DNA from: a virus
Taxonomy: Duplodnaviria; Heunggongvirae; Uroviricota; Caudoviricetes
Length of the DNA stretch: 10,560 nucleotides
IMG/VR virus record: IMGVR_UViG_2734482784_000004
Reading direction: 5' to 3' (one strand)
A program made the position numbers and the translations under genes. Below, piece by piece: positions 2,260 through 5,810 of this stretch (the first letter of the stretch is position 1; each line of letters begins with the position of its first letter). The notes beneath the pieces were generated by a model. That model searched no databases, was not told the origin of the DNA, and saw only the letters and a program-made list of their open reading frames with translations.

Positions 2260-2415
2260 TTACTCCTCAGGTTCGTAAGCTGTGAAGACAGCGACCTCCG
2301 TCTGGCCGGTTCGGATTCGTACCTCGCAGAGGTCTTTCCTCGTTACCAGTGCCGTCACTATGACGGTTAAACAGATGACGATCAGGGCGATTAACATCGC
2401 CTTTTGCTGCTTCAT
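2260..2415 (-). CDS. hokD: Hok-family type I toxin (HokD/RelF-like, 51 aa)
   Basis: Translation from the internal ATG at 2413..2415 is MKQQKAMLIALIVICLTVIVTALVTRKDLCEVRIRTGQTEVAVFTAYEPEE, which matches HokD/RelF as I remember it. AAGGAG lies 9 nt upstream. A GC-rich hairpin (2231..2252, GGCGAGGGA-tttc-TCCCTCGCC) follows the stop codon and the terminator lies further downstream. Confidence 0.9.
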   Translation of the reverse strand: MKQQKAMLIALIVICLTVIVTALVTRKDLCEVRIRTGQTEVAVFTAYEPEE

Positions 2416-2672
2416 AGCCTGCTTCTCCTTGCCTTTCGGCACGTAAGAGGCTAACCTACATGTGTCTAGCATGAAATTGGCCTCAGATTAATGTTAAGCG
2501 TCTTGCAGGACGCGTAATGTTAACTGGGGCTTTTCTCTACCTGCCGTTGGTGTTCGTGCCCGAGGCAGATAGCCTCAAGCACCCGCAGTCATTCTACTTA
2601 ACTAAGATTTCCCCGCAAACCGTTTTGTCCAGCACAGTAAATATCCAACTAAACCAATGGAGTTCGCTGTAT

Positions 2673-2852
2673 TTACCGCCAGTATTCAATGCACATGACC
2701 GCCATGAACACCCCTAAAAAAAGGGCATTTATATATCCAAATATTAATATCAAAACATCAACTTTTTCCATATACCTTGCTGTGAAGATGATGGGCATAC
2801 ATGATGCGAACAACCAGAACGCAACAAACAAAAACTGCAATGCGTTTTTCAT
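2673..2852 (-). CDS. Small predicted two-helix membrane protein (59 aa) in an AT-rich islet
   Basis: ATG at 2850..2852 preceded by GGGGGA; the ORF-track GTG at 2891 has GAGG directly abutting it, so the shorter form is preferred. The product (MKNALQFLFVAFWLFASCMPIIF...VDVLILIFGYINALFLGVFMAVMCIEYWR) has two hydrophobic stretches. Surrounding DNA is visibly AT-rich. Confidence 0.4.
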   Translation of the reverse strand: MKNALQFLFVAFWLFASCMPIIFTARYMEKVDVLILIFGYINALFLGVFMAVMCIEYWR

Positions 2853-3215
2853 TATTCCCCCTACAATCAATGTGCAATAACATTTAAACACACCTCAATT
2901 TAGCCGGACATATAAATATCTAAACCAGAAAAAATCACTTACATAGCGTTACAAACTCTTTAGTCTAAATATTCATCGTAAAACATTCCCCATACTTATC
3001 AGCCCGTTCTGCGCCAGGTAGCTCATTGCCTTATCTGGGAACCTGTAATCAGGTTTCCGGATGCTGGTGGATTTTCGCGTTTTAGTTGTTCATAAAAGTG
3101 CACAGCTTTAACCAGTTCTTCTGATGTAACCGGGACTGGCGGGGCAGTGAATAAGGCCTGAATTTCATAGTTCGGCCTATCGTTACAATCCTCTTTTTTC
3201 GGTACATATTTCCAG

Positions 3216-3338
3216 TCACCAGACCACTACTTCCCCTGAAAGTCCGTAACGCCTTTTTTTCACGTAGCGATATCGCCATGCCACTGTTTTTGCTTGCCCC
3301 GCCGTTTCATGCCCTTCCTGATAATTAACCTCGCTCAT
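3216..3338 (-). CDS. Hypothetical 40-aa basic peptide, start overlapping the stop of the upstream 58-aa ORF (ATGA)
   Basis: ATG at 3336..3338 overlaps the TGA at 3335..3337 of the upstream ORF. Translation MSEVNYQEGHETAGQAKTVAWRYRYVKKRRYGLSGEVVVW. Below the ORF-track length cutoff and competes with a different-frame 65-aa ORF at 3082..3279. Confidence 0.25.
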   Translation of the reverse strand: MSEVNYQEGHETAGQAKTVAWRYRYVKKRRYGLSGEVVVW

Positions 3339-3511
3339 TCATCGCCCCACTCATCACAATATGCTTCGACCGGAGTTTTTCCTGCTTCATAATCATCACG
3401 CCATGCTTCAGCATCAGCAGCACTGCTACCACGTAACTCTGCATAGTCCATTAACAGTTCATGCCATTCTTCAAAACCGACGTTGTATTTAGTTGAACCA
3501 AAATCAGCCAT
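3335..3511 (-). CDS. Hypothetical small acidic protein (58 aa)
   Basis: ATG at 3509..3511 preceded by GAAGAGGAAG about 6 to 8 nt upstream. Translation MADFGSTKYNVGFEEWHELLMDYAELRGSSAADAEAWRDDYEAGKTPVEAYCDEWGDE is strongly acidic with a protein-like composition. Not in the ORF track because it is under 60 aa. Confidence 0.45.
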   Translation of the reverse strand: MADFGSTKYNVGFEEWHELLMDYAELRGSSAADAEAWRDDYEAGKTPVEAYCDEWGDE

Positions 3512-3548
3512 TTTGTTCTTCCTCTTCGTCTTTTATTTCGTGATATGA

Positions 3549-3686
3549 TTAATTGCAGTAGTTAAAGAAAATATCTTTTGCTTCGTCATGTATTTCATCA
3601 GGCGTCGCATCATTATCCACTTCGAATTCATCCTCGAAATCTCCACCGGCTATTCCCGTTTCAATAATTATTTTAAACTTTCGCAT
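3549..3686 (-). CDS. Hypothetical small acidic protein (45 aa)
   Basis: ATG at 3684..3686, TAA at 3549..3551. Translation MRKFKIIIETGIAGGDFEDEFEVDNDATPDEIHDEAKDIFFNYCN. AGGAGG lies upstream but is separated from the ATG by a GC hairpin (3698..3715). Confidence 0.3.
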   Translation of the reverse strand: MRKFKIIIETGIAGGDFEDEFEVDNDATPDEIHDEAKDIFFNYCN

Positions 3687-3697
3687 TTAACTACCGC

Positions 3698-3715
3698 CCT
3701 TTCGGGCGGCCTCCT
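3698..3715 (-). promoter_or_regulatory. GC-rich hairpin (GCCGCCC-gaaa-GGGCGGT on the minus strand) between an AGGAGG motif and the start of the 45-aa ORF
   Basis: Inverted repeat read directly from the sequence. No U-run follows on either strand, so it is unlikely to be an intrinsic terminator; it could bring the SD-like motif close to the start codon or act as an RNA processing or stability element. Confidence 0.3.
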
Positions 3716-4193
3716 GATGTTCTGAGGGTGCAGAAATCCCTCCGGTTAAGGATTAAATTTTTAACAGTGCTAAATTTAATTATTCAGTTCTGGATTTTGT
3801 CACCCTGCGTATCCGCGCTTTCCCGTTACGCTCAATCTGAATTAGCTTTTCTATATTTTTTCGCCTTTCCCGTTCCTCCTGGCGCAAGAGCCTTACATCA
3901 TCTGCCAGTCTGGTTTCTCTTTTCGCCACAGAGAGCATCCAGTCAAATGGCTCCACAACTGCACCTCAGATTTTACAGCGGACCTGACGCTCTTTTTCGT
4001 CAACCCGGACAGAAGCGTGATGGCAATATGGTCTTTCCGATGGCTCATAAAGAAAATTAACCTGATTACGAGGGTCATCCTCTTTTATCGGAAATAAAAC
4101 GATATTGCTTAACTAATCCTCTGGTTTTATTTCCATGCTCCTCTCCTTTGATGCGAATGCCAGCGGTAATTGAAGCCTGATAGCTAATTTCAC

Positions 4194-4616
4194 TCACAGT
4201 ACCGCCTCCTGAAAATTACCCTGATAGAAAGCCAGTACACGCTGCATAGCTTCACTCTTCCGGCACTCGCGACAGATTATGTTTAGACGACTGTCGTAGC
4301 GACGTATTTCTCCATCAGGTAACGACCAGATAAGGTCCGGATCAACCACAGCTGTTTTCTTCACCTTTGCCCTCGAGAGTTTTTTGCGGGCGTTTTGCCA
4401 GTCCTTACGCGCCTGTTCAGACGGGAATAACCCGTAGCCGGAGTTGTATACATCGCCACTGGCTACCAGCTCTCTGGCAAGAACGCTCATCAGATATCTA
4501 GTCGCACCTGTTTTAGCTTCCAGTTGCCGTAACGTCTCACGACCGCTCTGGCGCACGAGTTCCACCACCTGCCCTTTAATTTTTTCCCGCTCTTCTTGTG
4601 TAAAAACTTTTGCCAC
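4194..4616 (-). CDS. Hypothetical 140-aa protein, possible regulator
   Basis: GTG start at 4614..4616 preceded by AAGGGGGA with a 3 to 4-nt spacer; TGA at 4194..4196. Basic and soluble, with a helix-rich N-terminus (RETLRQLEAKTGATRYLMSVLAREL) that could be HTH-like. No family confidently recognised. Confidence 0.65.
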   Translation of the reverse strand: MAKVFTQEEREKIKGQVVELVRQSGRETLRQLEAKTGATRYLMSVLARELVASGDVYNSGYGLFPSEQARKDWQNARKKLSRAKVKKTAVVDPDLIWSLPDGEIRRYDSRLNIICRECRKSEAMQRVLAFYQGNFQEAVL

Positions 4617-4785: not shown

Positions 4786-4942
4786 GATGTTTTTTACCCA
4801 GAATGGATCCCGCTGTATGTGGCGTGTTCCCCAACCAGGACGGTACGTTCACCGCGATGACATATACCAAAAGCAAAACGTTTAAAACCGAATCTGGCGC
4901 GCGTTGCTGGTTAGCCAGAAACACTGACTGATGAGGCTGACG

Positions 4943-5752: not shown

Positions 5753-5810
5753 TTTCTGGTGACGTTTGGCGGTATCAGTTTTACTCCGTGACTGCTCTGC
5801 CGCCGTTTTT
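5753..5810 (+). ncRNA. dicF: DicF small regulatory RNA (ftsZ-targeting, Hfq-dependent)
   Basis: Sequence TTTCTGGTGACGTTTGGCGGTATCAGTTTTACTCCGTGACTGCTCTGCCGCC followed by GTTTTT matches DicF as I remember it, including the GGCGG/CCGCC terminator stem and U-tail. It lies immediately upstream of dicB, as in Qin. Confidence 0.85.

Follow-up and report, generated by a model that had tools for sequence, protein, structure and literature searches.

A degenerating accessory-gene module in a Qin-like prophage of Escherichia coli and the recurrent Shine-Dalgarno–hairpin cassette that may start its translation

The stretch of DNA analysed here (the window) comprises 10,560 nucleotides (nt) of the IMG/VR record IMGVR_UViG_2734482784_000004 and represents a defective, Qin-like lambdoid prophage of Escherichia coli. 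Within a region of interest at positions 2973-4097, it carries three small open reading frames on the minus strand (ORF1, ORF2, and ORF3, corresponding to genes 1, 2, and 3), which are preceded by a Shine-Dalgarno (SD)-like hexamer and a GNRA hairpin, together called the cassette below. At this locus, a mobile module of accessory genes from lambda-like phages is decaying; it lies between the replication genes and Q, and only its gene 2 (ORF2) is still intact in the window. The cassette recurs in front of unrelated phage genes, and its hairpin may bring a distant SD within reach of the start codon. The near-identical genome used for comparison was that of E. coli 2017.01.04CC (NZ_AP021891, locus L001), which is 99.98% identical. 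The features on which the analysis rests are as follows, with protein lengths in amino acids (aa) and the isoelectric point abbreviated as pI.

4815-4817, no strand assigned: junction of a 2231-bp deletion relative to NZ_AP021891, from blastn of the window against L001 and the L001 feature table
3716-3753, minus strand: conserved non-coding element 5' of the SD, ATCCTTAACCGGAGGGATTTCTGCACCCTCAGAACATC, near-identical in most cassette copies
3710-3715, minus strand: SD-like AGGAGG, separated from the ATG by 23 nt of linear sequence
3693-3710, minus strand: GNRA hairpin with the stem CCGCCC/GGGCGG (3709-3694), a closing G.U pair, and the loop GAAA (3703-3700)
3687-3692, minus strand: A/U-rich spacer without SD-like sequence, which together with T3693 gives 7 nt from the 6-bp stem to the ATG at 3686
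3549-3686, minus strand: ORF1, 45 aa, DUF7167 family, ended by TAA at codon 46 (3551-3549)
3504-3548, minus strand: former 3' end of ORF1, codons 47-60 and the TGA stop, now untranslated, placed by alignment with five relatives
3335-3511, minus strand: ORF2, 58 aa, intact, acidic, of an unnamed family
3216-3338, minus strand: ORF3, 40 aa, basic (pI 9.6), the 5' stub of a disrupted DUF551-family gene
2973-3338, minus strand: full extent of the gene-3 pseudogene, mapped from L001 5874-6239

The coordinates of the three ORFs agree with those that a sequence-only reading of the window had given, and so does the ATGA (3338-3335) by which ORF3 overlaps its predecessor. That reading had also called the first two proteins highly acidic, and both have a pI of 4.05, with 29% Asp plus Glu and a net charge of -9 in ORF1, and 28% and -12 in ORF2. 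The GNRA hairpin that it had placed between AGGAGG and the first start codon is predicted in both the minimum-energy and the centroid folds of the 91-nt context, and the hairpin alone is calculated at -14.4 kcal/mol. The further picture of an operon of three tiny proteins survives in part: ORF1 and ORF2 are real, conserved, and arranged for coupling, whereas ORF3 is a DUF551 stub, ORF1 is truncated, and the promoter region is deleted. The remark that the genes lie below annotation cut-offs and are easily missed has to be given up, since the RefSeq annotation by the Prokaryotic Genome Annotation Pipeline (PGAP) lists ORF1 as "DUF7167 family protein", ORF2 as "hypothetical protein", and ORF3 within a pseudogene; the genes have thus not been overlooked.

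ORF1 matches the Pfam family PF23768 (DUF7167) with 41 bits against a cut-off of 24.4 (E 2.1e-10) over profile positions 1-52 of 60, and phrog_1997 with an E-value of 2e-23. It does not span the full-length domain (positions 1-60), as the last eight profile positions are missing; the 60-aa relatives, such as P0113 with 54 bits, cover the whole profile. An in-frame TAA stands directly 5' of the ORF1 ATG, so a longer ORF1 from an earlier start is impossible. The alignment with the five relatives shows TAC or TAT (Tyr46) at codon 46 where the window has TAA. The protein has 60 aa in 39 of 51 related copies, and the identical 45-aa protein is found on at least 1000 contigs. In the ancestral form, the TGA stop overlaps the ORF2 start inside ATGGCTGA, and the nonsense codon at position 46 uncouples gene 1 from gene 2. 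The AlphaFold model of the 60-aa form (predicted local distance difference test, pLDDT, 77) adopts a β-β-α-β-α arrangement, in which strand 3 comprises residues 45-51 and the terminal helix residues 53-59. The window allele ends just before strand 3, and it is predicted to have lost the third β-strand, the terminal helix, and the acidic tail.

DUF7167-like proteins with scores slightly below the Pfam cut-off, probable relatives of the family, are found in two groups of virulent phages, the Klebsiella Guernseyvirinae and the Enterococcus Herelleviridae. In the Klebsiella phage VLCpiS11a (L189, 3001-4525), the DUF7167-like gene (22.9 bits) extends 11 nt into the 5' end of a 454-aa DUF2800/PD-(D/E)XK nuclease gene and is situated within a replication-recombination module with a Gp2.5-like single-stranded DNA-binding protein and a DNA polymerase. 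In the Enterococcus Herelleviridae, it lies 3' of a DUF3850/ASCH gene. A general link between DUF7167 and exonucleases was dropped, because the supposed exonuclease neighbour in Enterococcus is this DUF3850/ASCH protein and the link is confined to the Klebsiella Guernseyvirinae. A locus in a Bacilli metagenome-assembled genome (MAG) was also dropped, being below Pfam significance; the scan of genome contigs for DUF7167 gave only three loci.

ORF2 matches only phrog_519 (E 5e-21, profile positions 76-137 of 143), and Pfam and NCBIfam assign it to no family. An exhaustive HMMER search collected 61 representative relatives, mostly of 50-65 aa and down to ~35% identity. In a 28-sequence alignment, A2, F13, W16, W37, Y41, and G44 are conserved, and the last five of these residues are invariant or nearly so. 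Acidity is a property of the whole family, with a mean net charge of -9.4 and 12 alignment columns in which at least 60% of the residues are Asp or Glu. The AlphaFold2 model of ORF2 (pLDDT 88.7) contains helices at residues 13-26, 34-42, and 47-55, and the protein is accordingly predicted to be a compact three-helix bundle.

The ORF2 family is found well beyond lambda-like phages. Relatives lie directly 3' of an Ead/Ea22-like gene in Enterobacter prophages and directly 3' of replication gene A (gpA) in P2-like phages. A relative is present in 198 phage records, mostly of virulent Ackermannviridae, in a KP34-like podophage, and in 554 plasmids, 516 of them conjugative. About 415 plasmid matches are 80-90% identical to ORF2, and all those listed in this band are IncI2-sized (~60 kb). 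In the case of CP088666.1 (L194, 6348-8980), a plasmid typed as IncI2, the relative is 86% identical and belongs to an operon of a CaiF/GrlA-family regulator, DUF1187, the ORF2 relative, SPFH/Band 7, and NfeD, upstream of type IV secretion genes. DUF1187 and the ORF2 relative overlap by 8 nt, similar to DUF7167 and ORF2 in phages. We make no claim of a leading-region placement on this plasmid, where the relative lies ~18 kb from the presumed oriT, beyond repA. A literature search for DUF7167, DUF1187, and the RefSeq accessions of these proteins found no papers.

ORF3 does not represent a gene of its own but an artefact of gene decay, namely the stub left by a frameshifted DUF551-family pseudogene. 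Intact gene-3 homologues have 104-252 aa and begin MSEINYQEGHETAGQAKPVAWRYRYVKK, and in the 252-aa relative the DUF551 domain occupies residues 184-249, the C-terminal part of the protein. Gene 3 of the window has a run of seven A (A7) at 3254-3260, where intact copies have six (A6), and in addition a native-frame TAG at 3227-3229; the 40-aa ORF is therefore composed of 28 native codons followed by 12 out-of-frame codons, and no intact frame ends in the domain. The PGAP label of the gene in NZ_AP021891 is "frameshifted; internal stop". The length of the poly-A run at 3254-3260 (minus strand) varies among copies, with A6 in the intact gene, A7 in the window stub, and A8 in an 85-aa out-of-frame ORF that carries a protein annotation in phage vB_EcoS-640R1. 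The run looks like a slippage hot spot.

The window copy has also lost its native early promoter region. The 2231-bp deletion takes out a replication-like gene, ydaT, a cro/dicC-like gene, a dicA-like repressor gene, and the start of a DUF1391 gene, together with both divergent early promoters, a region that would drive the operon and, in the other direction, dicB. A scan for sigma-70-like promoters on the minus strand between 2400 and 4800 found none. Since the early promoter region is deleted and no such promoter was called, the operon copy in the window is probably without its native transcription signal.

The intact module, as seen in relatives, consists of a 60-aa DUF7167 gene, a 58-aa acidic three-helix protein gene overlapping it by 8 nt, and a larger gene overlapping the second by 4 nt, which in some relatives ends in DUF551. 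The 8-nt overlap of genes 1 and 2 is present in 37 of 46 related loci, and the ATGA before gene 3 in nearly all; the three genes are arranged for translational coupling. Conservation of the reading frames in relatives, which the sequence-only reading had proposed as a check, was found for genes 1 and 2, whereas in the window ORF1 carries the nonsense codon and ORF3 the frameshift. Read in frame, ORF1 (as the 60-aa form) and ORF2 have ratios of nonsynonymous to synonymous polymorphism (pN/pS) of 0.11 and 0.12 across the related loci, whereas the two alternative frames give 0.7-4.7. The window holds 122 ORFs of at least 30 aa, among which ORFs of the size of ORF1 and ORF2 are not unusual; it is therefore the conservation and the family matches, not the size, that show ORF1 and ORF2 to be real genes, which code for proteins and are kept by purifying selection in functional phages. 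Their membership in a phage early operon is supported.

The most conserved part of the intergenic region is the cassette itself. The pairwise divergence per site is 0.014 in the SD and hairpin, 0.029 in the 5' element, 0.068 in the spacer, and 0.076-0.09 at the third codon positions of the adjacent genes. The SD and hairpin thus diverge 5-6 times less than the neighbouring third codon positions, and the spacer evolves at about the neutral rate. When the hairpin alone was used as the IMG/VR query, which removes the bias from requiring an SD, an SD-like hexamer was found beside the stem in all 125 sampled copies (AGGAGG in 93, GGGAGG in 16, AGGAGA in 11, CGGAGG in 3, and others in 2). Across 21 stem variants, 97% of the cells are paired, and the one-sided changes lead mostly to G.U. 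The variants are mostly C-to-U changes in the 5' arm, and the closing G.U is sometimes replaced by A-U, so that pairing is kept in the sense-strand RNA; the C-to-U changes keep G.U pairing in that strand only.

The conserved 40-nt element 5' of the SD (3716-3753) contains a predicted GGAGGG/CCCUC hairpin and a UCCU complementary to AGGA within the SD, and it could sequester or release the SD. A second class of copies lacks this element, and there the SD and hairpin directly follow a stop codon. An Rfam search of the hairpin and the intergenic region returned no family, and a consensus scan of the minus strand at 3690-3760 found no promoter-like or terminator-like site, with no U-tract after the stem. 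A lambda-type nut site (boxA plus boxB) was considered for the GAAA loop and rejected, as no boxA-like CGCTCTT could be read upstream; the position immediately ahead of a start codon inside the nin-like region and the absence of an Rfam family also speak against nut/boxB.

The arrangement has three of the properties expected of a split SD: the SD-start distance of 23 nt is above the ~20 nt taken as the lower bound, the predicted stem-loop leaves 7 nt, and the spacer contains no alternative SD. Translation of gene 1 would then start from a portable cassette with a strong SD (AGGAGG), in which the GNRA hairpin would loop out 16 nt and place the SD and the AUG ~7 nt apart in the folded mRNA, and ribosomes terminating on gene 1 would start again on genes 2 and 3. 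A hairpin that shortens the effective SD-start distance had been suggested by the sequence-only reading as something that could occur, and the suggestion gains comparative support from the constant SD hexamer, the low divergence, and a stem-to-start distance of 6-9 nt in five unrelated downstream families. We infer it to be the most likely function of the hairpin.

Several points weigh against the split SD. Covariation was tested for the hairpin and for the complete 86-nt cassette; in neither had both sides of any pair changed, and shuffled controls scored equally. Without compensatory changes, the support for the stem comes from thermodynamics and sequence conservation. A few variants, such as CCGCCA/GAGCGG and CCGTTC/TGGCGG, weaken the stem. 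Furthermore, the conservation of the cassette could equally result from recent horizontal spread or from a role of the DNA in recombination.

The distribution of the cassette bears on the last of these points. Of 120 stretches retrieved from IMG/VR with the pattern TCAGGAGG-N6-GAAA-N6-TA, about 90 were true copies. The cassette precedes at least five unrelated families, namely DUF7167, DUF4014, proteins beginning MTELTKEQ (which can end in DUF551), and those beginning MAELTREW and MQDIKEN. In all five, the stem stands 6-9 nt from the start, and the spacers (TAGTTAA, TAGTGAA, TAAGAA, TAATAAATA, and TAATGAAAA) contain no G-rich motif and no other SD. In E. coli O157-type genomes, ~67 nt including the hairpin match alone, ahead of a DUF4014 gene, and a Stx (Shiga toxin)-phage-like prophage keeps only TCAGGAGG and the hairpin, right after the stop of a different upstream gene. 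Junctions are marked on both sides, as the downstream genes of L006 differ from those of the window and the upstream sequence of L005 differs. In L027, L056, L104, and L114, and in L005 (1500-2600), a block of DUF7167, ORF2, and a partial Ead/Ea22-like gene is flanked by two cassette copies 1064 nt apart, of which the second precedes a DUF4014 gene; insertion or excision of gene blocks through recombination between cassettes would be expected to leave such a pattern. The cassette sits at boundaries where different accessory genes were swapped in. A scan of 1.7 Mb of fetched loci for an SD, a GNRA hairpin, and a start found only this cassette family; the loci had been chosen for holding the cassette, so the result is uninformative on the rarity of the arrangement.

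The junctions and the paired copies, together with the missing covariation, are what a DNA linker would lead one to expect, that is, a hairpin with flanks conserved for the homologous swapping of accessory genes, whose proximity to start codons merely reflects tight gene packing. A comparable mechanism is known for the PeSL cassettes of T4-type phages, stem-loop intergenic cassettes that are repeated in hyperplastic regions and flank small non-essential genes swapped by recombination (Arbiol et al. 2010; PMC2839356). The present cassette resembles them as a repeated, conserved intergenic stem-loop unit flanking exchangeable accessory genes, with two copies bracketing a block. PeSL, however, combines a strong early promoter with a terminator stem-loop, whereas the cassette has no consensus promoter or U-tract and has an SD at a fixed distance. 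As the sole explanation, we regard the linker as doubtful, because it does not account for the constant SD-like hexamer beside the stem, for downstream genes without an SD of their own, for the fixed 6-9 nt between stem and AUG despite a drifting spacer, or for stem substitutions biased towards pairing in the sense RNA. A linker role and a translation role are not mutually exclusive and can coexist.

The stability of the hairpin admits another explanation, namely that it serves as an mRNA processing or stability element, or as a weak terminator or attenuator, and that the downstream genes start by A/U-rich, S1-dependent initiation without an SD. Very stable, GC-rich GNRA hairpins are indeed typical of stems that protect 3' ends or terminate transcription, and the spacer and first codons are A/U-rich. 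We consider this explanation very improbable: there is no U-tract after the stem and no call from the terminator scan, Rfam has no match, the invariant adjoining SD is left without a reason, and one class of copies has a stop codon only 2-3 nt ahead of the hairpin, which still stands before the same gene with the same spacing.

Hairpin-bridged SDs are known from T4, in which a stem-loop cuts the SD-AUG spacing of gene 38 from 22 to 5 nt and that of gene 25 from 27 to 11 nt (PMC3014915). The cassette shares with genes 38 and 25 a distant good SD, a stable stem-loop (here predicted) restoring a functional spacing, and conservation among relatives, but there are differences. The cassette belongs to temperate lambda-like phages and is unrelated in sequence, and its SD-hairpin unit is reused before at least five unrelated genes, at mosaic junctions. 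In the case of T4, mutational and probing evidence exists, whereas the split SD proposed here is drawn from sequence and fold prediction, with no covariation.

With regard to the proteins, those of the ORF1 and ORF2 types may bind a host protein or one related to incoming DNA early in infection, and would thus act in host interference, possibly in counter-defence. Host interference is our best guess, and we infer it because the acidity is conserved, the folds are small and stable, selection is purifying, and ORF2 has spread across unrelated phages and conjugative plasmids. A narrower form of the idea, that ORF1 and ORF2 are anti-defence proteins, either DNA mimics or inhibitors of restriction-modification, RecBCD, or other systems, seems to us possible but rather unlikely. 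Both proteins are very acidic, with the acidity kept throughout the ORF2 family; both are stably folded in the models and encoded by small accessory genes of an early operon under purifying selection; and the ORF2 family is common to phages, both temperate and virulent, and to conjugative plasmids, elements that must overcome host defences when they enter a cell. In Klebsiella Guernseyvirinae, the probable DUF7167 relative, below the Pfam cut-off, overlaps the start of the PD-(D/E)XK nuclease gene, an arrangement reminiscent of the placement of gene 5.9 beside gene 6 in T7.

The comparisons with solved proteins are less favourable to an anti-defence function. Single-sequence and profile searches against PDB chains gave nothing for ORF1 or ORF2, and PADLOC and NCBIfam gave no match. 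Foldseek against the PDB gave ORF2 no match better than an E-value of 4.5 and ORF1 a best of 0.37; the ORF1 matches include the phage p56 (an Ung inhibitor) and T7 Gp2, but weakly (E ~0.7-1). No significant sequence, profile, or fold match to solved anti-defence proteins was thus obtained. Compared with T7 Ocr and gp5.9, lambda Gam, phi29-type p56, and T7 Gp2, the present proteins are alike in small size, strong negative charge, and early expression, while the β-β-α-β model of ORF1 has only non-significant fold matches to p56 and Gp2. The conserved strong negative charge of a DNA mimic is present (-9 and -12), and homology to a characterised member (Ocr, ArdA, Gam, gp5.9, or p56) was not detected. 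The ORF2 model is a compact 58-residue three-helix bundle instead of an elongated, DNA-like shape, the Enterococcus neighbour of DUF7167 once taken for an exonuclease is a DUF3850/ASCH protein, and the literature search for these proteins yielded no papers. In addition, ORF1 is truncated and the operon promoter is lost in the window, so anti-defence activity is not expected from the window copy.

A role in the phage's own development, in the control of lysis-lysogeny, replication, or recombination, would be in line with the genomic position of the module. In Stx phages and Enterobacter prophages, it lies in the exo-xis/ea region beside Ead/Ea22-like genes, and in P2-like phages the ORF2 relative follows replication gene A. 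The exo-xis proteins of lambda and Stx phages (orf60a, orf61, orf63, orf73, and Ea22) are small, early, and non-essential and influence the choice between lysis and lysogeny (PMC10834534), and they resemble the present genes as mosaic accessory genes of this kind. No homology between the two groups was detected, including in PDB searches against the structurally solved exo-xis proteins; the window module occupies the nin-like region, across the immunity region from exo-xis; and ORF2 relatives extend beyond temperate phages to strictly virulent phages and conjugative plasmids, which have no lysis-lysogeny decision. We therefore hold a developmental role to be unlikely.

Two observations count against host interference in general. 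On CP088666.1, the ORF2 relative stands ~18 kb from the presumed oriT in the CaiF/GrlA–SPFH/NfeD operon, and this is not a typical leading-region anti-defence cluster. Moreover, lambda exo-xis proteins with the same small, early, and non-essential character are reported to modulate the lysis-lysogeny decision rather than counter defence (PMC10834534). The whole account, combining a decayed module, initiation from a split-SD cassette, and host interference by its proteins, is in our judgement somewhat better than an even bet. A more ambitious combination, in which the cassette is at once a portable translation start and a homology for swapping, a translational counterpart of PeSL, and the DUF7167/ORF2 cargo consists of new inhibitors of host defence or DNA repair, appears decidedly unlikely.

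The remaining features of the window are those of a Qin-like prophage, in which the sok and DicF RNAs are expected.

Left end of the window: Q antiterminator, ydfU, and rem, from the ORF list and the L001 annotation
2410-2584, minus strand: sok antitoxin RNA of the hokD locus (Rfam, 107.8 bits)
3780-4097, minus strand: upstream pseudogene with an internal stop (PGAP, mapped from L001 6681-6998), the last 58 codons of which match phrog_1621 (E 1.4e-23)
4194-4616: DUF977 (Pfam)
5754-5805, plus strand: DicF small RNA (Rfam, 72.5 bits)
Right half of the window: dicB, ydfD, an 814-aa exonuclease, xis, and int, from the ORF list and the annotation

A fourth small ORF of 40 aa lies at 4075-4197 on the minus strand, with a GTG start that overlaps the DUF977 stop; it is probably a real small gene, because it matches phrog_37408 (E 1.4e-31). 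In NZ_AP021891, this ORF is broken by ISApl1, an insertion that the window lacks. Between hokD and the gene-3 pseudogene, a very hydrophobic 72-aa ORF (2673-2891, minus strand) gave no match in Pfam, PHROGs, NCBIfam, or PADLOC searches and may be a small membrane protein or spurious. Two records, one deposited as Actinobacillus phage vB_Apl-pPE4 (PP818812.1, H30) and the other a 3-kb contig binned as a Collinsella MAG (JAIHTM010000290.1, L007), share more than 90% identity with the present E. coli prophage module, and their host and bin assignments look doubtful.

The module is common and its genes are already annotated or catalogued: the 801 bp around the locus are matched in 2588 of 5426 complete E. 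coli genomes, with a best identity of 99.9%, so that the module with its cassette matches about half of them. The window copy itself is a decayed remnant and matters little. The ORF2 family, unnamed, highly acidic, well folded in the model, and present across several types of phages and plasmids, is a cheap and reasonable candidate for anti-defence and host-interference screens. The cassette is more informative than the locus, as it adds a case to an established type of translation signal and also acts as a mosaic junction. If the split SD is true, hairpin-bridged ribosome binding would gain a second example, independent of the first and far more widespread, gene callers would be helped to place starts that seem to have no SD, and the mosaic exchange of accessory genes among phages would be tied to a translation signal.

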